In this document: positions 9,479-33,217 of the stretch, in pieces
Numbering within the stretch: the stretch's first letter is position 1
Layout: the number at the start of each line of letters is the position of its first letter
Source of the DNA: an uncultured Anaerolineales bacterium
GTDB lineage: Bacteria > Planctomycetota > Phycisphaerae > FEN-1346
DNA: 42,022 nt
Reading direction: 5' to 3'
Assembly (NCBI GenBank): GCA_964353455.1
Contig: CAYGWP010000582.1
Location: 1-42,022, forward strand
The notes under the pieces: generated by a model
The model's input: only the letters and a program-made list of their open reading frames with translations
Told to the model about the DNA's origin: nothing
Databases searched by the model: none
Program-made: the position numbers and the translations under genes

Positions 9479-10474
9479 ATGCGCATCTCCCTGTTGCGTG
9501 CCGCTGCCTTTCTCGTTTGCGCCACCGTGGCGCTGGGCGCAAGCAAGGCCTCCGTGGATCAACCCCCCGACGGCGACTACCGCCAGGCCATGCGCCAGTT
9601 CGTCCAGGACATCAGCGCCTACGCCAAGGGCCTGCGGCCCAGATTCGCCATCATCCCGCAGAACGGCCAGGAACTCCTGACGACCAACGGCGAGGCCAAC
9701 GGCCCCCTGGCCAAGGCGTACACCTCGGCCATCGACGGCGTCGGCCGCGAGGACCTCTTCTACGGCTACAACCGCGACAACGTCGCCACGCCCGCCGCAG
9801 ACCGCGATTACATGCTCGCCTTCACAGACCTGGCCAGGCGCATGAACCTCACCGTCATGGTGACCGACTACTGCTCGAAGCAGGCGCGGATGGACGATTC
9901 CTACGCCCAGAACGCCAAGCGCGGGTACATCTCGTTCGCCGCCAACCGGCGAGACCTCGACGACATCCCCGCGTATCCGAAGACGCCGTACAACGCCAGC
10001 ACCAGCGACGTCCGCCTCCTGAAGGACGCCAGGAACTTCCTCTACCTCATCGATCCCGGCCGTTTCAAGACCAAGAAGAAGTTCCTCGACGCCGTCCGCG
10101 CCACCAACCACGACCTGGTGGTGGTGGACCTCTTCTGGGACGTCGCGGCCCTGACGGCCGCCGATGTGACGGCCATGAAGCGCAAGGCCAACGGCCGCGC
10201 GCGCCTCGCCGTCGCCTACATGAGCATCGGCGAGGCCGAGGACTACCGCTACTACTGGAAGCCGGAATGGAAGCGGAACCCGCCGGCGTGGCTCGGCAAG
10301 ATCAACCCCGACTGGGCCGGCTGCTACAAGGTCCACTACTGGGACAAGAACTGGCAGGACATCATCTTCGGCAACAACTCGTCGTACCTGAAGAAGGTCC
10401 TGGATGCGGGCTTCGACGGCGCGTACCTGGACATCATCGATGCATTTGAATATTTCGAGGAAGGCGGCAGGTAG
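9479..10474 (+). CDS. Secreted MJ1477/TM1410-family putative glycoside hydrolase (endo-alpha-1,4-polygalactosaminidase-like, GH114-related)
   Basis: Signal peptide; IIPQNGQEL, IDGVGREDLFYG, AYMSIGEAEDYRYYW, GFDGAYLDIIDAFEYFE. Confidence 0.85.
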   Translation: MRISLLRAAAFLVCATVALGASKASVDQPPDGDYRQAMRQFVQDISAYAKGLRPRFAIIPQNGQELLTTNGEANGPLAKAYTSAIDGVGREDLFYGYNRDNVATPAADRDYMLAFTDLARRMNLTVMVTDYCSKQARMDDSYAQNAKRGYISFAANRRDLDDIPAYPKTPYNASTSDVRLLKDARNFLYLIDPGRFKTKKKFLDAVRATNHDLVVVDLFWDVAALTAADVTAMKRKANGRARLAVAYMSIGEAEDYRYYWKPEWKRNPPAWLGKINPDWAGCYKVHYWDKNWQDIIFGNNSSYLKKVLDAGFDGAYLDIIDAFEYFEEGGR

Positions 10475-16439: not shown

Positions 16440-16469
16440 GTTCCCCAAATTCGTGTTCCCCAAATTCGT
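16440..16469. repeat. Perfect 15-bp tandem direct repeat overlapping a -35 box
   Basis: gttccccaaattcgt x2; the last T is the first T of TTGACA. Confidence 0.85.
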
Positions 16470-16497
16470 TGACAGGCGGTGGCGGCCGCTCTACAAT
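16469..16497 (+). promoter_or_regulatory. Sigma70-type promoter for the GT4-GH57 genes
   Basis: TTGACA-N17-TACAAT. Confidence 0.75.
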
Positions 16498-16599
16498 TGC
16501 AGTGTTGAGGGGTGTTGGCACGGCGCACAACGTGGACGAGAGGGGTTGGCGGGGTTTGCGCGCTTCTTCCGAGAAACGCGCAGGGTGAGAGTGTCGGCG

Positions 16600-17970
16600 A
16601 TGCGTATCCTCATGTTAGGGTGGGAGTTTCCGCCTTTCATCAGCGGCGGCCTGGGAACCGCCTGCTACGGCTTGGCCAAGGCCCTCGGCGAATTGGGCAC
16701 CGAAATCCTCTTCATCCTGCCGCGCTGCAAGGCGGACCAGCAATTCGACCGCGTGCGGATCCTCTCAACGCCCGAGAATCGCCCCGGCCGCGCGGCCCAC
16801 ACGTACTGGACCGTCGAAGGCCTGGAGCACGTGCGGCTGATCCCGGTGTCCGCCGCCCTCAGTCCATACAAGTCCGAGGAAGAGTACCTGAAGGAGGAGC
16901 GCGAGCGGCGCGAGCGTGGCAAGGCCGTCACGGAGGATGCCGATGGCGTGGCGAAGTCCCCCCCGCCCTTAACGGACTGGCGGGCGCCGGCCTCGGCGTC
17001 CGTGCCCACCAGCCTCGGCCTCATATCGAGCCCCGACATCTACGGCGGAGACCTTTTCACCGAGGTCCACCGCTACGCGCGGATCGTGGCGGAGATCGCG
17101 CGGCATCACGAGTTCGACGTCATCCACGCGCACGACTGGATGACGTACCCGGCAGGCCTGTCGGTGGCGGCCTTGAGCGGCAAGCCCCTCGTGGTCCACA
17201 TCCACTCGACGGAGTTCGACCGCAGCGGCACGAACGTCAACCAAAGGGTCTATGACATCGAGCGGGCGGGGCTGCACGGCGCCGGGCGGGTCATCTGCGT
17301 CAGCCGCTTCACGCGAGACATCGTCACGAGCCGCTACGGAGTGCCGGAGTCGAAGTGCCGCGTGGTCTATAACGCCATCACCGTCAACGGCGAGCCGATC
17401 CCATCGACCGTCAAGTCGATCGAGAAGGACGACAAGATCGTCCTCTTCCTGGGGCGAATCACGATGCAGAAGGGGCCGGAGTACTTCCTTGCAGCGGCCA
17501 AGAAGGTCATCCAGGTAATGGACAACGTGAAGTTCGTCATGGCCGGGTCGGGCGACATGATCCGACGAATGATCGAACTTGCGGCGGCCATGGGCATCGG
17601 GCACCGCGTGACCTTCACGGGCTTCCTGCGGGGCGACGACGTGGACCGGATCTACGAGATGGCGGACCTGTACGTGATGCCCTCTGTGAGCGAGCCGTTC
17701 GGCCTTGCGCCGCTTGAGGCGCTGTCGCACGACGTGCCGGTGCTCATCTCGAAGCAGAGCGGCGTGTCGGAAGTGCTGACGCACGCGCTGAAGGTTGACT
17801 TCTGGGACATCAACGAAATGGCCAATAAGATCATCGCGGTGCTGCGGCATCCGCCGCTCCAGAAGACCCTGAGGGAGCACGGGGCGTTCGAGGTCCGGAA
17901 GTTCGCCTGGTCCGATGCCGCCAGATCGTGCGTGGATGTCTATCACGAAGCCGTCGAAGGCAAGAGATAA
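16600..17970 (+). CDS. GT4-family glycosyltransferase (glycogen synthase-like)
   Basis: MRILMLGWEFPPFISGGLG, IHAHDWMT, LFLGRITMQKG, PSVSEPFGLAPLEA. Confidence 0.9.
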   Translation: MRILMLGWEFPPFISGGLGTACYGLAKALGELGTEILFILPRCKADQQFDRVRILSTPENRPGRAAHTYWTVEGLEHVRLIPVSAALSPYKSEEEYLKEERERRERGKAVTEDADGVAKSPPPLTDWRAPASASVPTSLGLISSPDIYGGDLFTEVHRYARIVAEIARHHEFDVIHAHDWMTYPAGLSVAALSGKPLVVHIHSTEFDRSGTNVNQRVYDIERAGLHGAGRVICVSRFTRDIVTSRYGVPESKCRVVYNAITVNGEPIPSTVKSIEKDDKIVLFLGRITMQKGPEYFLAAAKKVIQVMDNVKFVMAGSGDMIRRMIELAAAMGIGHRVTFTGFLRGDDVDRIYEMADLYVMPSVSEPFGLAPLEALSHDVPVLISKQSGVSEVLTHALKVDFWDINEMANKIIAVLRHPPLQKTLREHGAFEVRKFAWSDAARSCVDVYHEAVEGKR

Positions 17971-19145
17971 TGGCGAGCGTGTGTTTCTATTTTCAAGTCC
18001 ATCAGCCGTTCCGCCTGCGCCGGTATAGCGTGTTTGATTCCGACCCGAATTACTTCGACGAGTACAAGAACGCCGAAATCTGCCGCAAGGTCTCCCAGAA
18101 ATCCTACCTGCCTGCAAACCGGCTGATGCTCGAACTCATCCGGCGCTACGGCAGCGCATTCTCGGTCTCGTACTCCATCACGGGGGTGGCGCTGGAGCAG
18201 TTCCAGCGGTGGGCGCCCGATGCGGTCGATTCGTTCCGGGCGCTCGTGGATACCGGGCAGGTGGAAATCCTGGCCGAGACGTACTACCACAGCCTGGCCT
18301 TCCTGTACAGCCGCGAGGAATTCCGCGAGCAGGTTGTGGCACACTCGGCCAAGATCGCCGAGACGTTCGGCGTCCGGCCGAAGGTGTTCCGGAACACGGA
18401 ACTTATCTACAATAATGACCTGGCCCACTTCGTCCAGGAGATGGGCTTCCTGGGCATCTGCGCCGAGGGGGCCGACCACATCCTCGGCTACCGCAGCCCG
18501 AACTTCGTGTACCGGCCGGTCGGAACGGACCGCATCGCGCTCTTGCTGAAGAACTACCGCCTCTCCGACGACATCGCCTTCCGCTTCTCGGACCGCAACT
18601 GGAAAGAGTGGCCCCTGAAGGCCGAAAAGTTCGCCTCGTGGGTCAACGAGGTCAACGGCAACGGGTACATCATCAACCTCTTCATGGACTACGAGACGTT
18701 CGGCGAGCACCAGTGGGCCGACTCAGGCATCTTCGACTTCATGTACCATCTGCCCGAGTTCGTCCTGAAGCACCCCGACAACAACTTTATGACCCTCTCG
18801 CGGGCGGTGCAGACGTACGCGCCCGTGGCCGAACTCGACATCCCGCACATGGTCTCGTGGGCCGACATGGAGAGGGACCTATCGGCCTGGCTCGGCAACG
18901 CCATGCAGTCCAACGCCCTCCACGAACTCTACCGCCTTGAGGAGGCCGTCAAGGCCTCCGGCGACCCGCAACTGCTGCACGACTGGCGGCGGCTCCAGAC
19001 TTCCGACCACTTCTACTACATGTGCACCAAGTGGTTCGCCGACGGCGACGTGCACAAATCTTTCATTCCATGCGAATCCCCGTACGATTCCTACATCAAC
19101 TTCATGAACGCCCTCGACAACGTCCGCTCGCGGCTAAGGCGGTGA
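17970..19145 (+). CDS. GH57 alpha-amylase-like glycoside hydrolase
   Basis: YFQVHQP, ETYYHSL, FRNTELIY, FMDYETFGEHQW, LQTSDHFYYM. TAATG coupling to the GT4 gene. Confidence 0.92.
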   Translation: MASVCFYFQVHQPFRLRRYSVFDSDPNYFDEYKNAEICRKVSQKSYLPANRLMLELIRRYGSAFSVSYSITGVALEQFQRWAPDAVDSFRALVDTGQVEILAETYYHSLAFLYSREEFREQVVAHSAKIAETFGVRPKVFRNTELIYNNDLAHFVQEMGFLGICAEGADHILGYRSPNFVYRPVGTDRIALLLKNYRLSDDIAFRFSDRNWKEWPLKAEKFASWVNEVNGNGYIINLFMDYETFGEHQWADSGIFDFMYHLPEFVLKHPDNNFMTLSRAVQTYAPVAELDIPHMVSWADMERDLSAWLGNAMQSNALHELYRLEEAVKASGDPQLLHDWRRLQTSDHFYYMCTKWFADGDVHKSFIPCESPYDSYINFMNALDNVRSRLRR

Positions 19146-19702: not shown

Positions 19703-19802
19703 TGTTCCTTGCCTGCCCGGCCGCAGGGACCGGATTCGTGTTGCGTTTCGGTTGCATGCGGCAAATCGTCTTAAAGTCAGACCAAATCGAAAGGGGGTTT
19801 AT

Positions 19803-20537
19803 ATGACCACGGAAGAACTGGCCCGCGCGAAGCGCCGCAACTGCCACCTGCTCATCTGTGCCGCCGTCTGCCTGGGGATGATTTTCGCATTGGCTTTCCT
19901 CCCTCAACCCGGCCTGCTCGGCACAGCGCAAGCCGCTGACCCAGTCAACCCCTATGAGGCTGAGATCACCCGGTTGCAAGCCGAGGTCAACCTGCTTAAG
20001 CGGGAGAACGAGCCGCCTGCCGTCCATGATTGGACCGTTCCTCAGATCATCATAATGATTGTTCAGGTTGTAATCGCAGGGGGAATGCTGTGGACCGCCA
20101 TCCTGTCCTACAAAACAGCCAATAAGGCTCGAATGGTGGCGAAGCGGTCGCTGGCCGTGACCATGTGGGCTGGCATAGTCGCCGAAGCGCAATGGGGACC
20201 CAACGAATTGCCGGGTACCGGCACCACGATACACAATGAACTTCTCAGGATGACGTTGAAGAATCCTGGTCCGGGGCCAGCCCGATTGCACGGTCTTTAC
20301 CGTGAGGAAAAACTCGTAGACGGTCTTCAGAATATCAGGCTCTTCCCCGGCACGGCGTTCGACGGGCCCTTTGCCGAACTTGCGAAATTGCTCAAAAAGG
20401 ATCCTACGAAGGATTTTGTCTGCTATTTCCTATATACCGACGATCTGAAGCGACATTGGCAGCAATATTATCGGATCAACGCAAGCCGATATGCGTGCGT
20501 TCCCATGGACACGGTACGCATGCCTTCCCTTCCCTGA
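19803..20537 (+). CDS. Hypothetical membrane protein (2 TM, short coiled coil), lower GC
   Basis: AAGGGG RBS; two hydrophobic segments; atypical codon usage; no recognised motif. Confidence 0.7.
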   Translation: MTTEELARAKRRNCHLLICAAVCLGMIFALAFLPQPGLLGTAQAADPVNPYEAEITRLQAEVNLLKRENEPPAVHDWTVPQIIIMIVQVVIAGGMLWTAILSYKTANKARMVAKRSLAVTMWAGIVAEAQWGPNELPGTGTTIHNELLRMTLKNPGPGPARLHGLYREEKLVDGLQNIRLFPGTAFDGPFAELAKLLKKDPTKDFVCYFLYTDDLKRHWQQYYRINASRYACVPMDTVRMPSLP

Positions 20538-20604
20538 TCTGCTTGATAGGGCGAATGGCAACGACGGCGTATAATGTTGGAGTCATATCAGAGGAGAAAA
20601 AACC

Positions 20605-21069
20605 ATGCAGAAAGTCAAAGTAATTCCGCTTATGGTCGGGTTGATCGGGTTGACGGTCTTGATGCTGTTCCCAATCTGGAACGTGACGTATAGGAATGAC
20701 GCAGGCCTTGATCAATACGTGCTGAAGGACGACGTCGTAAAGCAAACTCGCCAAGACGAGGGGGTAGTCACGCTGAACACGGCCGCTAAGAGGGGATTCT
20801 TATTCGGAGGAATCCCGAAGGTCGGATTGGACTTGGACCGATCCGCGCCAACACCTCAAGACTTCGAGCGTTTGCAAATCAAGGCTGACGCTGATGGTAT
20901 CAAGAAATGGGATTGCCCTTGGCAAGTCGTAAGCTACGTTTCGGGAACTGCCGACTACAAGCGTATGCTTATCGAAGCAGCGGTGGTCATATTCCTAAGC
21001 TTCGCATGGTACTTGACATTTTACCTTTACAAGAGAAAAAAAGCATGGGGAGGGGGTGCGGGGACGTGA
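20605..21069 (+). CDS. Hypothetical membrane protein (N- and C-terminal TM), lower GC
   Basis: GAGGAG RBS; TATAAT at 20570-20575; hydrophobic segments at both ends. Confidence 0.72.
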   Translation: MQKVKVIPLMVGLIGLTVLMLFPIWNVTYRNDAGLDQYVLKDDVVKQTRQDEGVVTLNTAAKRGFLFGGIPKVGLDLDRSAPTPQDFERLQIKADADGIKKWDCPWQVVSYVSGTADYKRMLIEAAVVIFLSFAWYLTFYLYKRKKAWGGGAGT

Positions 21070-21282: not shown

Positions 21283-23643
21283 GTGCCGCGCGATATCCCT
21301 GTCGGAAACGGCAACCTGCTGGTCTGCTTCGATTCCGACTATCAAATCCGCGACATCTACTACCCCTACGTGGGGCAGGAAAACCACGCAGGCTGGGGAC
21401 CCTGCCGATTCGGCGTATTCGCCGACGGCCGCATCGCCTGGACTTCCGACCCGGGGTGGCAGAAGTCCCTCGAGTACATGCGGGAAACCCTGGCCACACA
21501 GATCACGCTCACCAACGACGGCCTGAAGGTCCACATGGTGTGCAACGACTGCGTGGACTTTAACCGCAACGTCTTCATCAAGAGAGTCGAGGTCACGAAC
21601 CGCGGCGACAAGCGGCGCGAAATCCGCCTCTTCCTTCAGCAGGACCTCTCGATGTACGGGTCGAAGGTGGGCGACACGGCCTACTACGACCCGCGCCTGT
21701 CGGCCGTGGTCCATTACCGCGGCGCGCGGTACATCCTGGCCTCGTTCTGCCGCAGGATGCCCGACGGCAAAGACCGGCACGGCTGCGACAGTTTCGCCAC
21801 GGGCACGTGCGGGTTCCGCGGCGCTGAAGGCACCTGGCGCGACGCCGAGGACGGCGTCCTCTCCGGCAACCCCATCAGCCAGGGGGCCGTCGATTCCACC
21901 ATCGGCCTCTCGGTCACCCTCGAACCCGGGGCGAGCGAAATCGTCTTCTACTACCTGGTGGCGGCCCAGTCCTGGCACGAACTCCACGACCTCCACGCCA
22001 TCGTCCAGGCCCGGTCGCCGGCGGCCATGCTCGAACGGACCGTCGGCTACTGGCGGGCCTGGGTCAACGGACCGGCCTTCAACTTCGGCAACCTGCCGCC
22101 CAGGGTCCGCGACCTCTTCAAGCGCAGCCTCCTGGTGGTCCGCACGCAGATCGACAACCGCGGCGCCATCATCGCCGCCACCGATTCCGACGTCCTCCAG
22201 TTCTCTCGCGACACCTACTCCTACATGTGGCCCCGCGACGGCGCCCTCGTGTGCCACGCCCTCGACCTCGCAGGGTTCCCCGATGTCACGCGCCGCTTCT
22301 ACACCTGGTGCCGCGACGTCCTCACCGCGGAAGGGTACCTTTTGCACAAGTACAACCCCGACGGCACGCCGGCCTCGTCGTGGCACCCGTGGGTGGTCGA
22401 TGGCAAGGAGCGGCTGCCCATCCAGGAGGACCAGACGGCCGTGGTCCTGTGGTCGCTCTGGCGGCACTTCTGGCTGTACCGCGACGTGGAGTACGTCCGG
22501 CCCCTCTACCATTCGCTCATCTGCAAGGCCGCCGACTTCATGGTCAACTTCCGCGACCCCGAGACGCACCTGCCCCTGCCCTCTTACGACCTGTGGGAAG
22601 AGAGGTACGGCGTCCACACGTACACGACGGCGACGGTGTACGGGGGGCTGATTGCGGCCCGGAACTTCGCCCAGACATTCAGCGACGCCGAGCGGGCCGA
22701 GCGCTACGACCGCGCGGCAATCGAGGTCCGCGAAGCGATGGCCAAGCACCTCTGGAGCGACAGCCTTCAGCGGTTCATACGGCGACTGGTCCCGACCGAC
22801 AAGGGCGGATGGGAGGTCGATTCCACCATCGACGCCAGCCTCTTCGCGGTCTTCAAGTTCCACGCCTTCGAGGCCAACGACCCGCGCGTCAAGAGCACCA
22901 TGGACGCCGTCTCAAAGGCCCTCTGGGTCAACACCCCCGTCGGCGGCATCGCGCGGTACCAGAACGACACCTACTATCGCGTCACGAGTGATAAGCGCGC
23001 CGTGCCGGGCAACCCGTGGTTCGTCTGCACGATCTGGATGGCCGACTATTACATTTCGCGCGGCTCGACGATCGAGGAACTCAAGGAAGCCCTCCCCATC
23101 TTCGAGTGGGCCGCCAGCCACGCGCTCCCCTCCGGCGTCCTGGCCGAGCAGGTTGACCCGTACACCAACCGCCCCCTCTCCGTCAGCCCGCTCACGTGGA
23201 GTCATGGCACGTTCGTCCTGACTTTGATGAAATACCTCCAGAAACTGGAGGACCTGCACCGATGCCCGACGTGCGGCCGCAGCATCTTCCGGATGGACCG
23301 CGGCGGCCGGCACCAGATCCGCAGCCACTCCTGGCTCGAGGCCCACGAGGTCTCCGAGGTGGACGAGCAGACGCCCGACCTCGTCAGCGTCGGCACCTTC
23401 AGCGAGGACGGACGCCGCGTCACACTCTCCGTCAACACCCGCGACTGCGTCGGCTGCGGCGTGTGCCTGGCAAGATGCCAGCCGAGAATCTTTGAAATGT
23501 GCAATGATAAATCCTTCATCAGCGTACGGCGGCTGGCCGCGTGCGTCCTCTGCCGAGAGTGCGAAACGTATTGCCCGATCCGCGTGGTCCGCCTGAACGT
23601 TGAGCCGACCGACCAGGCCGCCGCCAAACCGTCGAATGGTTAG
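21283..23643 (+). CDS. GH15 glucoamylase-like hydrolase with C-terminal CxxC and 2x[4Fe-4S] ferredoxin domain
   Basis: YSYMWPRDG, DLWEE (acid), LAEQ (base), SVSPLTWSH; then CPTCG, CVGCGVCLARCQ and CVLCRECETYCP. Confidence 0.9.
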   Translation: MPRDIPVGNGNLLVCFDSDYQIRDIYYPYVGQENHAGWGPCRFGVFADGRIAWTSDPGWQKSLEYMRETLATQITLTNDGLKVHMVCNDCVDFNRNVFIKRVEVTNRGDKRREIRLFLQQDLSMYGSKVGDTAYYDPRLSAVVHYRGARYILASFCRRMPDGKDRHGCDSFATGTCGFRGAEGTWRDAEDGVLSGNPISQGAVDSTIGLSVTLEPGASEIVFYYLVAAQSWHELHDLHAIVQARSPAAMLERTVGYWRAWVNGPAFNFGNLPPRVRDLFKRSLLVVRTQIDNRGAIIAATDSDVLQFSRDTYSYMWPRDGALVCHALDLAGFPDVTRRFYTWCRDVLTAEGYLLHKYNPDGTPASSWHPWVVDGKERLPIQEDQTAVVLWSLWRHFWLYRDVEYVRPLYHSLICKAADFMVNFRDPETHLPLPSYDLWEERYGVHTYTTATVYGGLIAARNFAQTFSDAERAERYDRAAIEVREAMAKHLWSDSLQRFIRRLVPTDKGGWEVDSTIDASLFAVFKFHAFEANDPRVKSTMDAVSKALWVNTPVGGIARYQNDTYYRVTSDKRAVPGNPWFVCTIWMADYYISRGSTIEELKEALPIFEWAASHALPSGVLAEQVDPYTNRPLSVSPLTWSHGTFVLTLMKYLQKLEDLHRCPTCGRSIFRMDRGGRHQIRSHSWLEAHEVSEVDEQTPDLVSVGTFSEDGRRVTLSVNTRDCVGCGVCLARCQPRIFEMCNDKSFISVRRLAACVLCRECETYCPIRVVRLNVEPTDQAAAKPSNG

Positions 23644-23657
23644 CGCCTCGATTCGGG

Positions 23658-23741
23658 GGGTGGCACGGCCACGCTGTTGGGTGGCCGTGGTAACATCCGA
23701 ACGGCTGACCACGGTCACGCAACAGCGTGACCGTGCCACCC
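23658..23741. repeat. REP doublet (REPIN-like): two inverted 32-bp units, each an internal hairpin
   Basis: gggtggcacggccacgctgttgggtggccgtg ... cacggtcacgcaacagcgtgaccgtgccaccc (3 mismatches between arms). Confidence 0.82.
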
Positions 23742-23771
23742 GGCAAGGCCGGGCCGCTACGGGGGTTATCC

Positions 23772-25781
23772 ATGCACCTTGACGCCGCCGCACTCCGAGA
23801 CCGTGACCGCTCGCTCGCCGCCGAGTGGCTCATCGCCGACGGCGCAGGCGGATACGCATCCTCCACGCCGCTCCTCTGCGGCACGCGGCGATACCACGGA
23901 CTCTGGGTCCCCGCCATGCGTCCGCCCGTTGACCGGCGGGTCGTCTTGTCGCACATCGACGAGAGAATCCAGACCGACGGCGTCGAGACCTTCCTCTCAA
24001 CCACCGAGTACGGCAGCGGCTTCTTCCCCGACGGCTCGCCCGCCGCCGAATCGTTCGACTCCGAGCCCCTGCCGCGCCTCGTCTCCAGCGCCGGCGGCAC
24101 GACGGTCCAGCGCGAGGTCGTCCTACTCAGGGACGGCGCCGGCGTGTGCATCGTGTACCGAGTCCGCTCCGAGAAGCACTGGACGCTGGCCCTCTCGCCG
24201 ATGCTGGCCTTGCGGTCGATGCACCACCTCGTCCACCGCCACGATGCGTTCCGCGTCGAGGAACTCGCCGCGGCCGGCGGCTTCCGCGTCATCACGGAGG
24301 GGTTGCCCGGCGTGTTTCTCTGGCTCGACATGCCCGGCGGCAAGGGCGCGAAGTCCGTGGAGGTCTCCGCGGAGACCGGCCCGCTCTGGTACTTCGGCGT
24401 CCTGAGGCGCGTGGAGCGCGAGCGCGGCTTCGACCACTTCGAGGACCTCCTCACGCCGGGCCGCTGGACGATCTCCGGCACAGGTCCGGCCGAGTGGCGC
24501 CTGGCCTGCTCGTTCGAACCGCCGCGCAAGATCGACGTCGGGGCGGAACTAAGGTCGCTCATCACACGCCGCGCCGACCTGGCGGTCCGCGCTGGGGCCG
24601 AGATGGACCAGCGCCTTTCGCGCCTGGCCGTGGCAGCCGATGCCTTCATCGTCCGCCGCCGCGTCGGCACAGAGGACTTGGCCACCGTCATCGCCGGCTA
24701 CCACTGGTTCGGCGACTGGGGCCGCGACACCCTCATCGCCCTACCGGGCCTGGCCATGGAAACGGGCCGCCTCGACGTGGCCGAGAAAATCCTGCGGGCC
24801 TTCGCCGGGCGTACGCCCGACGGCCTCGTCCCGAACTGTTACGACGAGAACACCGGCCAAGCCCAGTACAACACAGTCGATGCGAGCCTGTGGTTCCTCC
24901 AGGCGACCGCCGCCTTCGCTCGGGCCGGCGGCAGCGAACGGTTCGTCCGCGAGGAACTCTGGCCCGCCGCATGCCAGATCTCGGAGCGGTATCGACGCGG
25001 CACGGCCTTCGGCATCCACGCCGACTCCGACGGCCTCATCACCGCCGGGTCGCCGGAGACGCAACTCACGTGGATGGATGCCACCAGCCGCGGCCGGCCT
25101 GTCACGCCGCGCTACGGCAAGGCCGTCGAGATCAACGCCCTCTGGATCTCCGGCCTGGGCGAGATGCAGGAGTTGGCATCGCGTCTGCGCCTCGCGCCGC
25201 CGCCCGCCGCAGCCGACCTGGAGCGCACGAGCCGCGCGTTCGCCAACCTCTTCTGGAACCCCGAGCGCCGCTGCCTGTACGACTGCGTATTCCCGGACGG
25301 CCGGCGCGACCCGTCGGTGCGACCGAACCAGATATTCGCCGTCGGCCTGCCGCACGCGCCACTCTCCGGGGAGCAGGCGAAGGCCGTCGTCCGGACGGTC
25401 CGCAAAAAATTGCTGACGCCCAGGGGCCTGCGGACACTCGCGCCCGACGACCCGGCCTATCGCGGTCGCTACGCCGGCGGACCCGACGAGCGCGATGCCG
25501 CCTACCACCAGGGGACCGTCTGGCCGTGGCTCCTCGGTCCGTACGTCGATGCCTCGTTTGCGGTGGAGGACCAGCGGTGCGCCCGCGGCGAGGCACGGCA
25601 GATCCTGGGCGGACTCCTCGACTCGATGGATGAGGCGGGGCTCGGATACATCAGCGAGATTTTCGACGGCGACCCCCCGCCAGACGGATGGGCGGGCCGC
25701 GGCTGCATCGCCCAAGCCTGGAGCGTCGCGGCAGCCATCCACATCTGGAAATGCCTCGCCCTGACCGGAGGCCTGACGTAA
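23772..25781 (+). CDS. Glycogen debranching enzyme / amylo-alpha-1,6-glucosidase (GH133-like)
   Basis: EWLIADGAGGYASS, TRRYHGL, IAGYHWFGDWGRDT, TWMDA, GKAVEINALW, RPNQ, YHQGTVWPWL, SEIFDGD, AQAWS. Confidence 0.93.
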   Translation: MHLDAAALRDRDRSLAAEWLIADGAGGYASSTPLLCGTRRYHGLWVPAMRPPVDRRVVLSHIDERIQTDGVETFLSTTEYGSGFFPDGSPAAESFDSEPLPRLVSSAGGTTVQREVVLLRDGAGVCIVYRVRSEKHWTLALSPMLALRSMHHLVHRHDAFRVEELAAAGGFRVITEGLPGVFLWLDMPGGKGAKSVEVSAETGPLWYFGVLRRVERERGFDHFEDLLTPGRWTISGTGPAEWRLACSFEPPRKIDVGAELRSLITRRADLAVRAGAEMDQRLSRLAVAADAFIVRRRVGTEDLATVIAGYHWFGDWGRDTLIALPGLAMETGRLDVAEKILRAFAGRTPDGLVPNCYDENTGQAQYNTVDASLWFLQATAAFARAGGSERFVREELWPAACQISERYRRGTAFGIHADSDGLITAGSPETQLTWMDATSRGRPVTPRYGKAVEINALWISGLGEMQELASRLRLAPPPAAADLERTSRAFANLFWNPERRCLYDCVFPDGRRDPSVRPNQIFAVGLPHAPLSGEQAKAVVRTVRKKLLTPRGLRTLAPDDPAYRGRYAGGPDERDAAYHQGTVWPWLLGPYVDASFAVEDQRCARGEARQILGGLLDSMDEAGLGYISEIFDGDPPPDGWAGRGCIAQAWSVAAAIHIWKCLALTGGLT

Positions 25782-27376
25782 TGAATTGTGGATTGTGGAT
25801 TGTGGATTGTGGATTGCGGCGTTCAGCCGCGACTCGAAGTCGAGCACGTTTAGCCGCGACTCGAAGAGGAGCGCGTTGGATCGGGTTGGCGGTGGCTCTA
25901 GTCGCCGCCATTCATGCAACCTCCTCGGCGCAGGCGCAAGTTGATACAACCGTCGCCATCGATACCCCCGACAACGTTGCGCGGCCGGGCGCCTATGCAC
26001 CAGTGCGGATTCGTGCGACGAATCGGACGGCCCGGTCGATCTGGGAAGTTCGCCTCACGAGCGGCGGGCCGGTCGATGTGGTCGTCTCCTGGCGCATCGC
26101 CCCCGGCGAGACGGCCGAGAAGATCCTCCCCGTGTTCTACGCCGGCGGAGACCTGCGGCTTTCCGTCGAGTTCGCCGACGCCGCTGGCAACGTCATTGCC
26201 AATGCCGCCCCCGTGCCGCCGCCCGTCCACGAGGTCTCCGCGAAGACGGCCCTCATGGGCCTCCCCGTCAACCTGGCCGAACCGGACGAGATGGCGCAGG
26301 AAGCCGTGCGCGGGGTCCTCGGCGCCGAATCGCTCCGCCTTGTTCGCCTCGCGCCGGAAGCGATGGCGATGGCCCTCCGGTGCGGGATGCTCGATGCGAT
26401 CTTCTCGGACGCCCCGCCCGCCGCCACCGGCCGCGCGGCCGTCGCAAGGCCGGGACCGCCCCGCACGGTCGTCATGGCTACGGCGCTGCCTTTCGGGGCT
26501 CAAGATGTCGTGCAGCCGGAGGCCTCGCGGCTCTTCGCATCGAGCATCTGGCCCGCCGAGGACCGGCGGCGCCTTTGGCTCTGGCTCGGAGTCTTCGCGC
26601 TGGCCGTCCTCGCCGCGGGGGTCCTCGTGCCGGGACGGAAAGCCGGCCACGGCACGAGCCGTACCCGTGCCAGGGCGGTGGTCGCCACGGCGATTCTCGT
26701 GATCGTCGCGGCTGTCGCCGCGGCGACCATCCTCTTCTTCGGCGATGTACGCCTGGCGCGGGTCCGCGACGCCCGCGTGTTCTACATCGACCCCTTCCGG
26801 ACGGACGCAGGTCTCGAACATTTCGTGCTCCTTGAGTCGCGCGGGGGGGCGCCGGCGAATTTCGTCCTCGCGCAGCCCGGCACATCGCCTTTTCCCGTGC
26901 CGGTGCTCGCGGGCTCGGAGGACTTCTTCCGCAAGGGCGGCACGCTGCACGTGGGGAGCGAGGAGTACTTTGAGAGCCGCGAGCCGTGGCTGCTCGTTCA
27001 CGTTCTCTCGACGGCCGAGTGGCGCGGTGGGCAGTCTTGCCCACCGCGCGAATTGCGGCCGACGCGGGCGGACTTGGCGGCGGTCGCCAGGCGAGCCGAC
27101 GTTGTCGCCGCCCTGCTGGTCGATGGCAGCGTCGCCACCGATGCCGCCGGCCGGTCGCAGCCCCTGGAGGCCTGGGCCGTCGAGTGGAAGGCCGACGCCG
27201 ACCCGCGTCTCGCCTACGCCGGCCGCAGCCTCTCCTGGTGGGACCGCGACCGCCGCGAGGGCGACGGAAAGGTCCTCCTCGTCTGGTGGCACGACGCCGC
27301 CTGTCCCCCCGCCGAGGCCCCGCCGAGTTTGGGGGACCGGTCATTCCCGACGCTGGCGGTCTATTCGGCCGAGTGA
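25781..27376 (+). CDS. Hypothetical membrane/secreted protein (signal-like segment plus two internal TM); start uncertain
   Basis: TAATG coupling to the debranching enzyme gene; typical codon usage after about 25900; N-terminus is built from repeats. Confidence 0.7.
   Translation: MNCGLWIVDCGLRRSAATRSRARLAATRRGARWIGLAVALVAAIHATSSAQAQVDTTVAIDTPDNVARPGAYAPVRIRATNRTARSIWEVRLTSGGPVDVVVSWRIAPGETAEKILPVFYAGGDLRLSVEFADAAGNVIANAAPVPPPVHEVSAKTALMGLPVNLAEPDEMAQEAVRGVLGAESLRLVRLAPEAMAMALRCGMLDAIFSDAPPAATGRAAVARPGPPRTVVMATALPFGAQDVVQPEASRLFASSIWPAEDRRRLWLWLGVFALAVLAAGVLVPGRKAGHGTSRTRARAVVATAILVIVAAVAAATILFFGDVRLARVRDARVFYIDPFRTDAGLEHFVLLESRGGAPANFVLAQPGTSPFPVPVLAGSEDFFRKGGTLHVGSEEYFESREPWLLVHVLSTAEWRGGQSCPPRELRPTRADLAAVARRADVVAALLVDGSVATDAAGRSQPLEAWAVEWKADADPRLAYAGRSLSWWDRDRREGDGKVLLVWWHDAACPPAEAPPSLGDRSFPTLAVYSAE
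25784..25877 (+). repeat. Heptamer tract (5 units) followed by a 27-bp tandem duplication
   Basis: aattgtg gattgtg gattgtg gattgtg gattgcg; then cgttcagccgcgactcgaagtcgagca / cgtttagccgcgactcgaagaggagcg. Confidence 0.88.
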
Positions 27377-27401
27377 TCGCAAGTCAAGTGATCGCAAGTC
27401 A
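27372..27401. repeat. Perfect 15-bp tandem duplication containing the upstream stop codon
   Basis: agTGAtcgcaagtca x2. Confidence 0.85.
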
Positions 27402-27420
27402 ATTATATGGAGAAGGTCCG

Positions 27421-30336
27421 ATGCATCCATGGCGAACCGCCTTTCTCGGAGTATGCTGCCTCTTGACCGCCGCTACCTGTCACGCGGCGCCTGTGCCTGA
27501 AGCCGCCGACCCGCTCGATGCTGCAACGATAGTCTGGGATTCGCCGAGCAAGGATTCCTCCGGCTCCATGCCGCTCGGTAACGGCGACATCGGCCTCAAC
27601 GTGTGGGTTGAGACCGGCGGCGACCTCGTGTTCTACGTAAGCAAGACCGATGCGTGGGATGCCCTGGGGCGGCTCCTGAAACTCGGGCGGGTGCGCGTGA
27701 AGTTCTCGCCGAACCCGTTTGCGGCCGGCGCGCCCTTCCGCCAAACGCTGCGACTCCGGCAAGGGGAGATCGAGATCGTCGCCGGGCCGCCGGCCGAAGC
27801 CGTTACGGTCCGACTCTGGGTCGATGCCAACTTGCCGGTCGTCCGCCTCACGGCCGACGGCGCAAAGCCGCTGGCTATGCAGGTCAACCTGGAGGTCTGG
27901 CGAACTCAAGAAGGGCCGCTGGAGGGAAAGAACCGCGATTCCGCCCGCGGCATCCTCGGCGCCCCGACACCGCTGGTCGCCACGCCCGACACCGTCCTTG
28001 ATGCCGCCGGCGATCGCCTCGTCTGGTATCACCGCAACACAAGTTCCTGCTGGCCGATCACGATGAAGGTCCAGGGCCTCGAGAGCCTCGTGAAGCCGAC
28101 GGACGACCCCCTCATCAGCCGCACCTTCGGCGGCTGCATCAAGGGCGACGGCCTCGCGAAGGACGGTCCCACAACGCTCCGCTCGAAGCAGCCCGCCCGC
28201 AACCACTCCGTCGCCATCTACATCCTCAAGCCCGAAGCACCCGTGACGAACGATGAGTGGCTTGCGGCGCTGGACCGCCTCATCGCCCGCGTCGATGAAG
28301 TCCGGCCCGAGAGGGCCCGCGAGGCCCATCTTCGCTGGTGGGATGATTTCTGGAACCGCAGTTGGATCCGCGTGTCGGGGGCGGCGGCGCCAGGAGGCCC
28401 GCAGATCACCGCGAACGACCTGCCGCTTCGGATCGGCGCCTCCAGCAGCGGCGGCAACCGATTCGTCGGCGACATCGCAAGGCCGATGGTCTTCAGCCGC
28501 GCGCTTACGCCCCAGGAGGTCGCGGCCCTCGCCGACGGCAAGGATCAAGCCCTCCAGCGGGACCCGGCCCTCGTCGGATTCTGGACCTTCGACAACCTGA
28601 AGGACGGCGCCTTCGGGAGCGCCGCCCCCGGCGAGAACCTCCCCGCCAAGATGGTCGGCGAGGTCGCGGTGGTCGATTCCCCCGCCCGCCAGTCCGTAGG
28701 GCGGGCCGTGCGGCTCGGCGGCAAGGGATACCTGGAGGTGGCCGACAATCCGCGTCTGCACCTTACGACCGGCTGCACGCTTGCCGCATGGGTGGCCGTG
28801 GCGGCATCCAACAGCGCCGACGGCCGCATCATCGACAAGTCCAGGGCCGGCACCAGCAATGGCTACCTCCTCGATACATATCCAAGGAATTCGCTGCGGA
28901 TGATCACCGAGCCCGGGACGCTCATCCACAAGGACGCGCTGAAACCCGGCGAGTGGACCCACGTGGCCGCCACGTTCGACTCGGCGGGCGACCTGCGGCT
29001 GTACGTGAACGGCAGGCAGGTGGCCGCCGAGACGATCGGCGCAACCGGCGGCGCGAACGTCGTCACTCAAGGGTACACCCTCCAGCGGTTCATAAACGCC
29101 TGCGCCGGACGCGGAGCCATGCCGATAAAGTTCAACGGCTCGATCTTCACGGTTGATATTCCAGGGACGGACGGGGACTACCGGAGATGGGGCGGATGCT
29201 ACTGGTTCCAGAACACCCGCCTCCCCTACTGGTCAATGGCGGCCTGCGGCGACTTCGACCTCATGCAGCCACTGTTTAAGATGTACATGAATGCCCTGCC
29301 TTTCAGAAAGGCCGTTACCCGGCTTTACCACAACCACGACGGCGCGGTCTACGACGAGACCATCTACTTCTGGGGCACCCCCTGCAACGACGACTACGGC
29401 TGGAAGCACGAAGGGCACCCCGTGTCGCTCATGGTCAACCAGTACATCCGCCGCCACTGGGAAGGCGGGCTGGAACTCGCGATGATGATGCTTGACCATT
29501 TCGATTACACCGAGGACAAGGCGTTCGGCAGGTCAACGCTGGTCCCCTTCGCCGATGCAATCGCCACCTTCTACGACAAGCACTATCCGCGAGAGACCGA
29601 CGGGCGACTGCGGATCGAGCCCGCCCAGTCGCTCGAGACGTGGTGGACGGCCGTCAACCCGATGCCCGAGGTGGCGGGCCTTCGGGCCGTCCTGCCGCGG
29701 CTCATCGCCCTGCCGGAGGACCTCGCCACGCCGACGCAGCGCGAGAACTGGAGGCGCCTGCTCGGGCAGGTCCCGCCCATTCCGCTGCGACAGGCCGACG
29801 GCAAGACCATCCTTGCGCCGGCGCAGGAATTCTCGAACCGTCATAACTGCGAGAACCCGGAACTCTACGCCGTCTTCCCGTACCGCCTCTACGGCGTGGG
29901 CAAGCCGGACCTGGAGATGGCGCGGGCGAGTTTCGCCGCACGCGAGGTCAAGGGCAGCCGCGGATGGCAGCAGGACCCGGTGCAGGCCGCCATTCTCGGC
30001 CTCGCGGACCAGGCCGCCCAGTTCATCGCTCGACGATTCGCCACCAAAGACTCCGGCAGCCGATTCCCCGCATTCTGGGGACCGAACTTCGACTGGGTCC
30101 CCGACCAGGACCACGGGGCAAACGGCATGATGGGCCTCGAGGCGATGCTCCTCCAGGCAGACGGCCGCAAGATCTACGTCCTCCCCGCGTGGCCGAAGGC
30201 CTGGGACGTCGAGTTTGCGCTCCGCGCGCCCTATAGCACGACCGTCGAGTGCCTCTATCGGGGCGGCAAGGTCGAGCGATTGAAGGTGACCCCGGCCTCG
30301 CGCGAAAAAGACGTGACAGTGCTCCCGCCGCAGTAA
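27421..30336 (+). CDS. Secreted GH95-like (DUF5703-type) glycoside hydrolase with an inserted LamG-like domain
   Basis: Signal peptide; GSMPLGNGDIGLNVW; LamG-like WTHVAATFD..LRLYVNG; PIKFNGSIF, YWFQNTRLPYW, ENPELYAVFPY, NFDWVPDQDHG, LPAWPKAWDVEF. GGAGAAGG RBS. Confidence 0.82.
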   Translation: MHPWRTAFLGVCCLLTAATCHAAPVPEAADPLDAATIVWDSPSKDSSGSMPLGNGDIGLNVWVETGGDLVFYVSKTDAWDALGRLLKLGRVRVKFSPNPFAAGAPFRQTLRLRQGEIEIVAGPPAEAVTVRLWVDANLPVVRLTADGAKPLAMQVNLEVWRTQEGPLEGKNRDSARGILGAPTPLVATPDTVLDAAGDRLVWYHRNTSSCWPITMKVQGLESLVKPTDDPLISRTFGGCIKGDGLAKDGPTTLRSKQPARNHSVAIYILKPEAPVTNDEWLAALDRLIARVDEVRPERAREAHLRWWDDFWNRSWIRVSGAAAPGGPQITANDLPLRIGASSSGGNRFVGDIARPMVFSRALTPQEVAALADGKDQALQRDPALVGFWTFDNLKDGAFGSAAPGENLPAKMVGEVAVVDSPARQSVGRAVRLGGKGYLEVADNPRLHLTTGCTLAAWVAVAASNSADGRIIDKSRAGTSNGYLLDTYPRNSLRMITEPGTLIHKDALKPGEWTHVAATFDSAGDLRLYVNGRQVAAETIGATGGANVVTQGYTLQRFINACAGRGAMPIKFNGSIFTVDIPGTDGDYRRWGGCYWFQNTRLPYWSMAACGDFDLMQPLFKMYMNALPFRKAVTRLYHNHDGAVYDETIYFWGTPCNDDYGWKHEGHPVSLMVNQYIRRHWEGGLELAMMMLDHFDYTEDKAFGRSTLVPFADAIATFYDKHYPRETDGRLRIEPAQSLETWWTAVNPMPEVAGLRAVLPRLIALPEDLATPTQRENWRRLLGQVPPIPLRQADGKTILAPAQEFSNRHNCENPELYAVFPYRLYGVGKPDLEMARASFAAREVKGSRGWQQDPVQAAILGLADQAAQFIARRFATKDSGSRFPAFWGPNFDWVPDQDHGANGMMGLEAMLLQADGRKIYVLPAWPKAWDVEFALRAPYSTTVECLYRGGKVERLKVTPASREKDVTVLPPQ

Positions 30337-30354
30337 CCCGCCGCCACGTTATTC

Positions 30355-30383
30355 TTGCCGCGCGGCAGGGCCGACGCTACCAT
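30355..30383 (+). promoter_or_regulatory. Promoter, probably leaderless transcript
   Basis: TTGCCG-N17-TACCAT-N7-ATG(30391); no Shine-Dalgarno. Confidence 0.55.
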
Positions 30384-30390
30384 ACGCGGC

Positions 30391-31827
30391 ATGGCTCGGG
30401 TCATCTCTCGGTGGCTGCTCTGTGGAGTTCTGGCGGCGACGGTCGCCGCGGCGACAGAGCCTGCGGCGCCGGCTCGCCAGGGCGAAGTGCAGCAAAGCCC
30501 GGCCGACACAACGGTCGCGCCGCCGGAGGCCGAATCGCCCGGTTGGGGACCTCCCAGCGGCGGTCTCTCCATCTCCCTTTCGCTCGATGGCGACGTCTCG
30601 AGCGGCGGGAACCTCAAGGTGAGCGTCAGCCTGAAGAGCGCTGCCGGAAACCCCGTCGCGCTTCCGCCCGCGAAGGACGTTTTCGGCTGGCTTCTCGTGG
30701 CCCAGAGCACGCCGGGGTCGAAGAAGGCGTACTACAGCGAGAAGATTTCCTTCGCCGGCGCCGGCAAGGACTGGCCGGCGGAAATCGGCGGCGATAAGAT
30801 GGTTACTTATAAGTCGATTGATCTATCCAAGTCGGCCGCGTACGCCTCCGAGGACGCCAAGCGCCTCCTCACGGCCTACGTCTCCCAGGCGGGCGAGGGC
30901 CTCCCCAAGCCCGCCGGCAAGATGAGCGCCGTCCTCATGCCCGGCCGCGCGATGGCCAAGTTCACCCTCTGCATCCCGGCAACGGGCGCCGCACCGACGC
31001 TCGTGACGAGCGCCGCCGCGGAAATCCTCGTCGGGCCGCCGGACTTTAAGTCGCTCTCGCCCGAGGCCCGCCAGGCTTTCATCGTGGACCTCCTGAAGCA
31101 ATACGACCGCGATGCGTGGTCGGGCCAGCAGGCCCACGACACGGCCGTGCGGCTCGGCAAAGATGTTCTGGACGCGATCATTCCGCCGGCGCTCCAGACG
31201 CGACGACCGTCGCACGCGCGGCTGTGGCTCGCCACCACGCTGGCCGACATCGCCGACGAGCGGGCCGTCAATGCCCTCATCAAACTCCTCGATGACCCCA
31301 TGGGCGGCGTGCGGTACGTCGCGGCATATCACGGGGTGAAGCAGAGAGATGCGCGGCTTGACAAGGCCATCATCGACAAGGTCCAGTCATCGAAAGATGC
31401 GGGCCTGGCAACGTGGGCGCTCCAGGGTTTCATGGTCTTCCGCGGCAGCGCTCCGGATGAACTTGTGAAGGCCACTTTGGAGAGCGACGACCCGAAGGCC
31501 CGCGTGATTGCCGCCGAGATGCTGGCCAAGCACGCGGGCGATACGAACGTGGGGCGCCTCGCCGCGCTCCTCGCGGATAAGGACGAGCGGGTCCGGTCCA
31601 CGGCGGCGACGATGCTCGCCAAGTATAAGAGCCGCACCCCCGCGGTTATCGCGGGACTCGTGAAGGCCCTGGACAAGCCGGGCGAGAACGCGCGCTTGAG
31701 GGTATGCGCGGCCCTTTCGGAACTCACCGGCCGAAGCGGCCCGTACGACCCGGCAGCCGACCAGGCGGCGCGCGACAAAACCCTCGCCGACTGGCGCGCC
31801 TGGTTCGAGAAGCAAAGTGCAAAGTGA
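30391..31827 (+). CDS. Secreted HEAT-repeat protein
   Basis: Signal peptide; HEAT repeats AVNALIKLLDDP..VR, LAALLADKDERVRSTAA, VCAALSELTG...WRAWF. Confidence 0.82.
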   Translation: MARVISRWLLCGVLAATVAAATEPAAPARQGEVQQSPADTTVAPPEAESPGWGPPSGGLSISLSLDGDVSSGGNLKVSVSLKSAAGNPVALPPAKDVFGWLLVAQSTPGSKKAYYSEKISFAGAGKDWPAEIGGDKMVTYKSIDLSKSAAYASEDAKRLLTAYVSQAGEGLPKPAGKMSAVLMPGRAMAKFTLCIPATGAAPTLVTSAAAEILVGPPDFKSLSPEARQAFIVDLLKQYDRDAWSGQQAHDTAVRLGKDVLDAIIPPALQTRRPSHARLWLATTLADIADERAVNALIKLLDDPMGGVRYVAAYHGVKQRDARLDKAIIDKVQSSKDAGLATWALQGFMVFRGSAPDELVKATLESDDPKARVIAAEMLAKHAGDTNVGRLAALLADKDERVRSTAATMLAKYKSRTPAVIAGLVKALDKPGENARLRVCAALSELTGRSGPYDPAADQAARDKTLADWRAWFEKQSAK

Positions 31828-31841
31828 AAAGTGAAAAGTTG
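31814..31841 (+). repeat. Heptamer tract (4 units) supplying the last codons and stop of the HEAT gene
   Basis: aaagtgc aaagTGA aaagtga aaagttg. Confidence 0.8.
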
Positions 31842-31921
31842 ACGCCGTTCACAGTTAGCCGCCGCGCTTGCGCGGCGCGTTCTGAACTCACACGCACATG
31901 CACGCACAGGAGGTACCAACG

Positions 31922-33148: not shown

Positions 33149-33217
33149 CACGGCCAGCCGCGCCAATACCGGAGTTTCGCTGTCGGATCAGGAACAGCAA
33201 GCGGAAAGGAGAATCAC

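Follow-up and report, generated by a model that had tools for sequence, protein, structure and literature searches.

A gene in the glycogen cluster of an uncultured planctomycete encodes a glycoside hydrolase family 15 (GH15) glucoamylase-type enzyme fused in frame to a C-terminal domain with the cysteine motifs and predicted fold of a two-cluster ferredoxin. The gene lies in a 42,022-nucleotide stretch of DNA, hereafter the window (positions 1 to 42,022 of contig CAYGWP010000582.1 in assembly GCA_964353455.1, named as an uncultured Anaerolineales bacterium and placed in the Phycisphaerae, FEN-1346, by its GTDB lineage). The fusion is real and under selection, as confirmed by other assemblies, genome surveys, a bridged junction and selection on the tail, and it is conserved and undescribed in the papers we found. 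Selection has maintained it in at least two classes of Planctomycetota although GH15 hydrolysis needs no redox cofactor or electrons. Accounts of how bacteria regulate alpha-glucan metabolism mostly invoke allosteric or transcriptional control. Should the domain gate activity, it would add a new regulatory principle to this metabolism and a new, very direct tie of carbon-store use to redox balance at oxic/anoxic boundaries; if it is only structural, the fusion would be a curiosity of domain architecture. The gene and its parts are as follows, with residues numbered along the 786-amino-acid (aa) protein.

21283..23643, plus strand: whole gene, GH15 glucoamylase-type enzyme with a predicted C-terminal Fe-S module; 786 aa, GTG start, TGA stop included
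21283..22077, plus strand: N-terminal beta-sandwich of bacterial/archaeal GH15 type (about residues 1-265); strands at 13-228 in the AlphaFold2 (AF2) model, predicted local distance difference test (pLDDT) mostly >85
22081..22098, plus strand: NFGNLP loop (N267-P272) at the junction of N-domain and barrel; kept with the tail, degenerate without it
22126..23217, plus strand: GH15 (alpha/alpha)6-barrel catalytic domain (residues 282-645), PF00723; structural matches 1lf6 and 9ju0
22588..22602, plus strand: DLWEE (436-440); W438, E439 and E440 invariant in 60/60 aligned homologues and in every row with an intact catalytic site in a second alignment of related loci
23140..23151, plus strand: LAEQ (620-623); A621, E622 and Q623 invariant in 60/60 aligned homologues
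23179-23205, plus strand: SVSPLTWSH (633-641), end of GH15, followed by 145 further residues
23248..23379, plus strand: knuckle and linker (residues 656-699); invariant C661-x2-C664, lowest dN/dS (nonsynonymous to synonymous substitution ratio) of the gene
23263-23274, plus strand: CPTC knuckle (C661/C664), in 121/121 homologues
23380..23598, plus strand: ferredoxin-fold domain (residues 700-772), in which a beta-hairpin extension precedes a 2x[4Fe-4S]-type core; pLDDT 86-95
23446..23478, plus strand: motif 1, CVGCGVCLARC (C722, C725, C728, C732), all four Cys in 121/121
23542..23577, plus strand: motif 2, CVLCRECETYCP (C754, C757, C760, C764-P765); C754, C760 and C764 in 121/121

An earlier note on this DNA had read the gene as one continuous GH15-ferredoxin frame, and closer analysis bears this out. 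The open reading frame (ORF) contains no internal stop, its motifs stand where the note had placed them, and its start agrees with that of homologues, which begin with the same MPRD... as the window protein. The best 120 database homologues measure 686-922 aa at 53-93% identity, and 116 of them cover 98-100% of the query; with the query included, 59 of the 121 sequences hold two CxxCxxCxxxC motifs, 62 hold one and none holds zero. Logan contigs of four sediment-metagenome runs, one of which may be the window's own source sample, bridge the junction without rearrangement (22923-23388, 23294-23458 and 23442-23737). The best-matching runs are likewise sediment metagenomes, and one RNA run (X24) contained 0.06 of the query words. 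Pairwise comparison of 12 coding sequences from the window's clade (66 pairs) gives a dN/dS of 0.24 for the catalytic core and tail values that match it, 0.17 for the knuckle and linker and 0.28 for the ferredoxin domain; only the last 14 residues rise to ~1.

A profile of related loci covers the best 80 of 544 related stretches in a scan of genome contigs. Among these 80, 45 carry an in-frame ferredoxin motif (44 complete, one running off a contig end), 26 are complete without the motif, and 9 are cut by contig ends or have broken frames. Close relatives with the two parts in separate ORFs, which the earlier note had named as a sign of error, did not appear: the genes are fused in 21/21 genomes of the window's family and in 45/80 related loci, and at 25 of the 26 complete unfused relatives there is no Fer4 ORF within 1.5 kb downstream. 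The exception, locus L076, has downstream of it a short frame of 30 aa that runs on the opposite strand and fits the ferredoxin motif, which is taken for a chance match. A metagenome scan with P0130, a 91-aa ferredoxin that looks stand-alone, returned only an unrelated HdrA-like polyferredoxin. The chance that the fused gene is an artefact, in which a lost stop, a frameshift or a chimeric assembly brought together a GH15 gene and a ferredoxin gene beside it, is therefore vanishingly small, since the same single ORF recurs across hundreds of independent assemblies, one of them the complete genome of a cultured strain (L037), the four-run contigs cross the junction, the tail is under selection, and no split form was seen among the loci examined. 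Nothing was found in favour of such an artefact. In two long-read chromosomes of metagenome-assembled genomes (MAGs; L029 and L073) the fused frame ends at 622 and 539 aa while tblastn similarity runs to residue 778; these breaks are truncations, not fusions, and are probably assembly indel errors or recent pseudogenes.

The body of the 786-aa protein is, by its sequence, a GH15 exo-alpha-glucosidase of the glucoamylase or 'oligosaccharide amylase' type with intact catalytic residues. Its Pfam match to PF00723 passes the family threshold (residues 282-645, E 9.7e-30, 104.2 bits against a cut-off of 22), and the AF2 model of the whole protein (pLDDT 84.5, predicted template modelling score 0.80) comprises a beta-sandwich, an (alpha/alpha)6 barrel and a small alpha/beta domain. 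Foldseek places the bacterial glucoamylase 1lf6_A first among matches to this model (E 6.5e-26, TM 0.73 on the target, 18% identity), followed by further matches including 1ug9 and 9ju0. The best NCBIfam model is TIGR01577, 'oligosaccharide amylase', which aligns over residues 12-651 (model positions 1-613 of 616) with 326.5 bits; the protein does not reach the cut-off of 820.7 bits and therefore is not an equivalog of that named subfamily. The catalytic motifs DLWEE and LAEQ are both present, as first noted, and by homology we take E439 to be the general acid and E622 the general base. The solved bacterial enzyme of Thermoanaerobacterium type (1LF6) shares the beta-sandwich, the barrel and the WEE/AEQ motifs; known bacterial and archaeal GH15 proteins end soon after the PLTWSH helix, whereas the window protein adds ~130 conserved residues with 10 Cys. 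Direct reading of the N-terminus reveals no signal-peptide features, so the protein is probably cytoplasmic, and the neighbouring genes alone point to maltooligosaccharide, glycogen or trehalose as its likely substrate.

Nine tail cysteines (C661, C664, C722, C725, C728, C732, C754, C760 and C764) are invariant in 121/121 homologues, which answers the question of cysteine conservation raised with the original observation; position 757 varies, with 59 Cys, 56 Asp, 3 Asn and 3 Lys. The spacing is that of dicluster ferredoxins, C722-x2-C-x2-C-x3-C732 and C754-x2-C-x2-C-x3-C764-P, and by ferredoxin topology C722, C725, C728 and C764 would presumably ligate cluster I, and C732 with the other three Cys of motif 2 (C754, C757, C760) cluster II. 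Modelled alone, the tail yields a ferredoxin domain with the same pLDDT of 86-95 and the (beta-alpha-beta)2 ferredoxin fold. Its best fold match is 7bkb_L (Z 8.6, root-mean-square deviation (rmsd) 1.9 Å over 64 residues), with PsaC at Z 8.4, FwdG at 8.3 and 2vkr at 7.9; 48 chains match at Z >= 5, and those among the matches listed are Fe-S ferredoxin domains. The alignment to 2vkr, a Zn-containing 7Fe ferredoxin, reaches furthest into the N-terminal hairpin among the matches listed, starting from model residue 62. The solved chain closest to it in sequence is the MvhB polyferredoxin (E 5e-9), and a look-up of the tail in the ESM Atlas gave no usable match. Because nine cysteines are invariant and the model adopts a ferredoxin fold, Fe-S binding by the tail is credible on sequence and model.

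The tail recurs in independent genomes of a group of sediment and soil bacteria, in three lineages and three forms. It is present in 21/21 genomes, from 12 genera, of the window's family, in 0/5 genomes of the one further family sampled in its order and in 1/14 from other families of its class. Among sampled genomes of Tepidisphaerales, the order of Fontivita pretiosa, 63/101 have it (62/100 without the unpublished G480). Within a 401-genome sample of the phylum, full-length matches to the tail are confined to the window's genome and 15 genomes of a single family (f39) of low GC content (0.39-0.45 vs 0.65 in the window) that belongs to a different class from the window's. A homologue search with residues 650-786 only returned 56 proteins, all of the window's clade. 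Titles of the best 80 loci are Planctomycetota throughout, bar several binned assemblies labelled 'uncultured Anaerolineales'; these fall inside the window's clade, and their labels are probably wrong.

In the window's clade the tail has eight Cys, ligands enough for two full sites. The Tepidisphaerales form reads CxxCxxCxxxC followed by Cxx(D/N/K/R)xxCxxxCP and is carried by the complete genome of the cultured F. pretiosa B-254 (L037) and by a Humisphaera MAG (L039). The f39 form retains CxxCxxC and a distal C-C-P only, and C732 is absent. Invariant across 37 tails of all three forms are C722, G724, C725, C728, K743 and C764-P765. Cluster I is thus predicted to be indispensable, because only its four ligands are invariant across the three forms, and cluster II adjustable, remodelled in Tepidisphaerales and lost in f39. 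The earlier claim of two complete CxxCxxCxxxC motifs accordingly holds in the window's lineage and fails elsewhere, where the cluster I ligands alone are universal.

We favour, tentatively and with somewhat less than even confidence, the reading that the tail is a sensing module for redox, O2 or iron status that gates the GH15 enzyme or its stability. A reporter or gating role is the most likely one because hydrolysis needs no electrons, and the catalytic residues are the same in unfused relatives and in a tail-less paralogue of the same genome, which fits a non-catalytic role for the tail. The Fe-S module would take no part in hydrolysis and would instead report the redox, O2 or iron status of the cell. 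Cluster I would be the essential reporter, either swapping electrons with the ferredoxin pool or being damaged by O2 or nitric oxide (NO), and its state would set the order of the tail against the enzyme body, with the NFGNLP loop as the candidate contact. Tail order might in turn gate glycogen or maltodextrin breakdown, or enzyme stability, in oxic/anoxic or fermentative shifts, and cluster II would be an accessory that lineages remodel or drop. The sensing proposal fits because cluster I is invariant, cluster II admits non-Cys ligands, the hosts live in oxic/anoxic settings and no partner gene accompanies the fusion. One source lists F. pretiosa as a facultative anaerobe and Humisphaera as a microaerobe/aerobe (PMC13514998), and a genome survey describes many Phycisphaerae as facultative anaerobes or fermenters (PMC11266412). 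The variation at position 757 (Cys/Asp/Asn/Lys) recalls reactive or convertible clusters, by analogy.

The CxxC knuckle ahead of the ferredoxin domain invites a different mechanism, in which the Fe-S domain would reduce a C661-C664 disulfide that switches the enzyme. The pair is invariant in 121/121 homologues, co-occurs with the Fer4 motif in 43/45 fused loci and is kept in catalytically dead relatives described below. Such a ferredoxin-to-dithiol relay is nevertheless improbable: fused loci L048 and L050 lack the CxxC, eight unfused relatives keep it without an Fe-S domain, seven of them with a nearby third Cys or a His in the manner of a metal knuckle, and in the window's clade the spacing from the CxxC to His is of zinc-finger type. 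There, H677 and H682 give C-x2-C-x12-H-x4-H (His at +12 and +17), the classical zinc-finger spacing; H677 is found in 47/59 and H682 in 52/59 of the clade, and both are absent from the Tepidisphaerales clade. The knuckle has weak phmmer matches to C2H2 fingers (2i13_A, E 5e-5; 1mey_C, E 1.6e-4), but the window protein has no Pfam zf-C2H2 match at E <= 1 and its AF2 model no confident helix after the knuckle. Pairing of C661/C664 with the core cysteines C41, C87, C343 and C582 was considered and rejected, since unfused forms without the CxxC conserve these core residues to the same degree.

A maximum-likelihood tree suggests that the fusion is ancestral, was passed on vertically and was later lost in Phycisphaeraceae, in the same-genome paralogue L002 and in a truncated copy, L046. 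The tree was built from core columns only, with the tail excluded (79 rows, quick search, LG+G4), and rooted on the group of catalytically dead relatives; its outgroup branches are long, its root is assumed, and the starred quick-tree branches are less trustworthy with long rows. On it the 25 unfused Phycisphaeraceae rows form a clade that branches from within tail-bearing lineages, and three changes explain how the tail label is distributed. Seven members that split off early in this clade retain the CxxC, five with a third Cys, one with a His and one with neither nearby. Seven unfused Phycisphaeraceae-type MAG loci (L057, L058, L061, L070, L072, L079 and L084) have a short Cys-rich knuckle end, for example C-x2-C-x5-C, and because these loci branch early in the unfused clade, their knuckle ends look like vestiges of a tail that lost its ferredoxin domain. 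Paralogue L002 (genome G000, contig C343:230-2263, minus strand; the window's genome is 90% complete) is a GH15 gene 50% identical to the fused copy over residues 1-685, with intact catalytic residues and neither CxxC nor ferredoxin tail, and is a natural control for it. Two GH15-like genes are also present in 14/16 f39 genomes that match at the threshold used.

One stretch of the body follows the tail through these losses. The N(F/Y)GNLP loop is kept in all 48 fused rows (13/13 of the window's clade, 32/32 of Tepidisphaerales type and 3/3 of low-GC type, one of the last as NYGNLP) and, as NFGNLP, in 3/4 of the dead relatives; every one of the 25 unfused Phycisphaeraceae rows has a changed loop, and so has the tail-less paralogue of the same genome. 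Because it is kept in fused rows and altered in both independent unfused lineages, the loop is a candidate docking site for the tail; because there are only two independent losses, it is a lead and not proof. Docking of the GH15 body (residues 1-672) against the Fer4 domain (698-786) with two 4Fe-4S clusters riding along scored 0.00 and favours neither side.

The same losses bear on the idea that the tail is a structural Fe-S or Zn module that stabilises the protein, holds an oligomer or aids seating on the glycogen granule and carries no signal. Its invariant cysteines are what such a module would need, the purifying selection on the linker (dN/dS 0.17) is expected for a structural element too, and two CxxC ligands per chain would suit a metal site shared between two subunits; the weak C2H2-finger matches and the place of the Zn-containing 2vkr among the best fold matches point the same way. 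Against this, many GH15 relatives without the tail are stable, as seen in 25 unfused Phycisphaeraceae loci and the same-genome paralogue, a costly O2-sensitive cofactor is an odd choice for mere stability, and a purely structural site would not tolerate the Asp, Asn or Lys that replaces Cys in cluster II, or the loss of that cluster. We regard a structural role as unlikely, though a serious contender.

A sister group without catalytic residues keeps the tail whole. Searched against 1.84 billion representatives, the tail has 176 matches at E <= 1e-3 and 22 at E <= 1e-10. Among the matches are four full-length proteins (712-764 aa) that share the architecture of the window protein at ~34% identity. 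A protein search with one such relative, P0128, added only two further relatives (55% and 51%), both metagenome singletons. In all six members (P0128, P0275, P0276, P0131, P0132 and P0134, metagenome singletons) WEE is replaced by YRR, WQR, WNR, WQT, HHK or WSN, AEQ and the WPRD stretch are also replaced, and the CxxC and all eight ferredoxin Cys are retained. These pseudo-enzymes were not found in the 401-genome phylum sample, where P0128 as query gave nothing closer than 36% identity. Judging from these sequences, the value of the tail is independent of hydrolysis, because a catalytically dead group keeps all of it, and by analogy the pseudo-enzymes resemble a dedicated Fe-S sensor derived from an enzyme.

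Several observations weigh against the sensing proposal. Its regulatory step is one that we infer. All Fer4-family Pfam matches of the window protein (residues 717-768) fall below gathering scores (Fer4_10 at 23.1/25.5 is best, then Fer4 at 19.6/21.1, Fer4_9 at 18.8/27 and Fer4_7 at 17/27), whereas relatives do pass: fragment P0124 reaches 30.8/27 for Fer4_7, and many homologues carry precomputed Fer4 families. His partners for the invariant CxxC are seen in the window's clade alone, and the glycogen-cluster context is absent in Tepidisphaerales and f39. The pseudo-enzymes also fit a tail role unrelated to regulating its own enzyme. The AF2 pLDDT drops below 50 at 674-697, so that a freely tethered domain is possible, which suits an electron carrier too, and the nearest solved relatives of the domain (MvhB, PsaC and FwdG) are electron-transfer subunits, not sensors.

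These last points are the case for a tethered electron carrier that serves another enzyme, with the GH15 body, active or dead, acting mainly as an alpha-glucan anchor or scaffold: all nearest solved relatives are electron-transfer units, the segment predicted to be disordered is tether-like, and the dead sister group retains the whole tail. We consider it decidedly unlikely. In none of the three lineages does a conserved oxidoreductase gene stand beside the fused gene. The Fontivita copy (L037, 6001-8472) is directly followed by a gene for a hybrid-cluster (prismane) protein (8666-9970), which was considered as a redox partner and set aside, as it occurs at 1/80 loci. Tepidisphaerales neighbours are purB-like and unrelated genes, and the conserved f39 neighbours are an ammonium transporter, RtcB and archease, with no glucan or redox genes. 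A two-cluster wire would moreover be cut to one cluster in f39 and altered in Tepidisphaerales, no part of the gene is under tighter constraint in the window's clade than the presumed tether, and breakdown of glycogen to glucose has no electron-requiring step.

The sensing proposal can be carried further, to a claim that is possible but rather doubtful: that this is the first glycoside hydrolase switched, in activity or lifetime, by its own Fe-S domain, linking ferredoxin, O2 or iron state to glycogen mobilisation, and that its dead relatives are alpha-glucan-binding Fe-S sensors or regulators, as IRP1 arose from aconitase. Fe-S clusters with regulatory or structural and non-catalytic roles are known in enzymes such as Bacillus subtilis glutamine phosphoribosylpyrophosphate (PRPP) amidotransferase, aconitase/IRP1 and endonuclease III/MutY. 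These likewise hold a cofactor without a role in the reaction chemistry, and the pseudo-enzyme group parallels the IRP1 situation, in which a catalytically dead relative keeps the cluster site; in all of them the cluster lies inside the catalytic fold, whereas the window protein has a separate, appended ferredoxin domain. In plants, the ferredoxin-thioredoxin system controls starch-degrading enzymes through separate proteins and regulatory disulfides. The likeness lies in tying glucan breakdown to reduction of the ferredoxin pool, with the CxxC dithiol as a possible switch; the difference is that the ferredoxin-like unit here sits within the enzyme chain, and a C661-C664 disulfide would be hypothetical.

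The domain itself shares both CxxCxxCxxxC(P) motifs and its fold with known 2x[4Fe-4S] ferredoxins and ferredoxin-like subunits (MvhB, 9sw6_G; PsaC; FwdG, 5t5i_G; 7bkb_L), at Z 8.3-8.6 and rmsd 1.5-1.9 Å over 61-64 residues. Known units of this kind are free carriers or oxidoreductase subunits, whereas this one is fused to a hydrolase without a redox step and, unlike them, is preceded by a CxxC knuckle and beta-hairpin and scores below Pfam Fer4 gathering. Pyrococcus furiosus ferredoxin has an Asp cluster ligand. Desulfovibrio africanus FdIII combines a stable 4Fe with a reactive 3Fe cluster (PMC13111528), and the NO sensor NsrR holds its cluster with three Cys and one Asp (PMC5411485); the Tepidisphaerales tail would resemble them in pairing a complete site with one whose fourth ligand is not Cys. 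Since the window protein has Cys at 757, this parallel holds for its relatives only. Natural controls for the proposals above exist in the unfused same-genome paralogue, the one-cluster and Asp-ligand variants and the dead forms, and F. pretiosa B-254 is a cultured carrier.

Full-text literature searches (supplements lay outside them) found no description of a GH15-ferredoxin fusion, and no CAZy-family glycoside hydrolase with an Fe-S domain turned up in the literature searched. The Phycisphaerae genome survey (PMC11266412) does not mention GH15, glucoamylase or ferredoxin, and the accessible part of an alpha-glucan review (PMC11046441) mentions iron-sulfur once, in another context. The suggestion that the fusion was undescribed therefore stands for papers; as an architecture it is already visible in automatic annotation, where the Joint Genome Institute (JGI) product name 'GH15 family glucan-1,4-alpha-glucosidase/ferredoxin' is in use.

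In the window the fused gene stands among genes for alpha-glucan synthesis and breakdown:

16453..17970, plus strand: glycogen/starch-synthase-like glycosyltransferase (GT4/GT5; Glycos_transf_1, Glyco_transf_5)
17928..19145, plus strand: GH57 alpha-glucan-active enzyme (PF03065, E 3e-75)
23727..25781, plus strand: glycogen debranching enzyme of amylo-alpha-1,6-glucosidase type (GDE_N and GDE_C; PF06202, E 9e-112; PF12439, E 2e-45)

The placement inside a glycogen cluster proposed earlier is right for the window's family, where the debranching-enzyme gene lies immediately downstream of the fused gene in 10/11 loci of the clade, and does not extend to Tepidisphaerales or f39. The glycogen synthase-like and GH57 genes lie ~2-5 kb upstream of the fused gene in the window; the glycosyltransferase is also found upstream in L018, L020 and L093, and GH57 in L018, L020, L023, L024 and L093. 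The alpha-glucan review describes an archaeal glycogen cluster (Sulfolobus) of GH15, glycogen synthase, GH57 and GH133, the same four enzyme classes as in the window's neighbourhood, and reports that a GH15 mutant of the archaeal-type cluster accumulates glycogen (PMC11046441).

Two small plus-strand ORFs between GH57 and GH15, 19752-20537 (261 aa) and 20605-21069 (154 aa), match no Pfam family. They have a counterpart in none of the best 80 related loci, and the GH57-GH15 gap is ~750 bp in L018 and ~170 bp in L020, so 19752-21069 looks like a local insertion that splits the cluster. An 83-bp spacer separates the fused gene from the debranching-enzyme gene. An imperfect palindrome of ~85 bp at 23658-23741 matches itself on both strands and overlaps the first 15 codons of the listed debranching ORF; the listed GTG start (23727) lies inside this repeat, and the true start is probably the in-frame ATG at 23772 (MHLD...). 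The palindrome has at least 80 matches in the genome, on some 45 contigs among the matches listed and most on both strands, and read depth over it rises from ~10-25 to 270-2400 in the four metagenome runs. It is an intergenic repeat resembling repetitive extragenic palindromes (REP) or miniature inverted-repeat transposable elements (MITE), and between the two genes it may act in termination or RNA stability.

A polysaccharide-related run of genes, downstream of those for glycogen, occupies 25688-41095 and also includes a HEAT-repeat protein, a DUF6786 protein and a 1239-aa BNR/PA14/DUF3472 protein, together with:

26986-30336: DUF5703, laminin-G and GH95-like gene
34630-36426: GH32 gene

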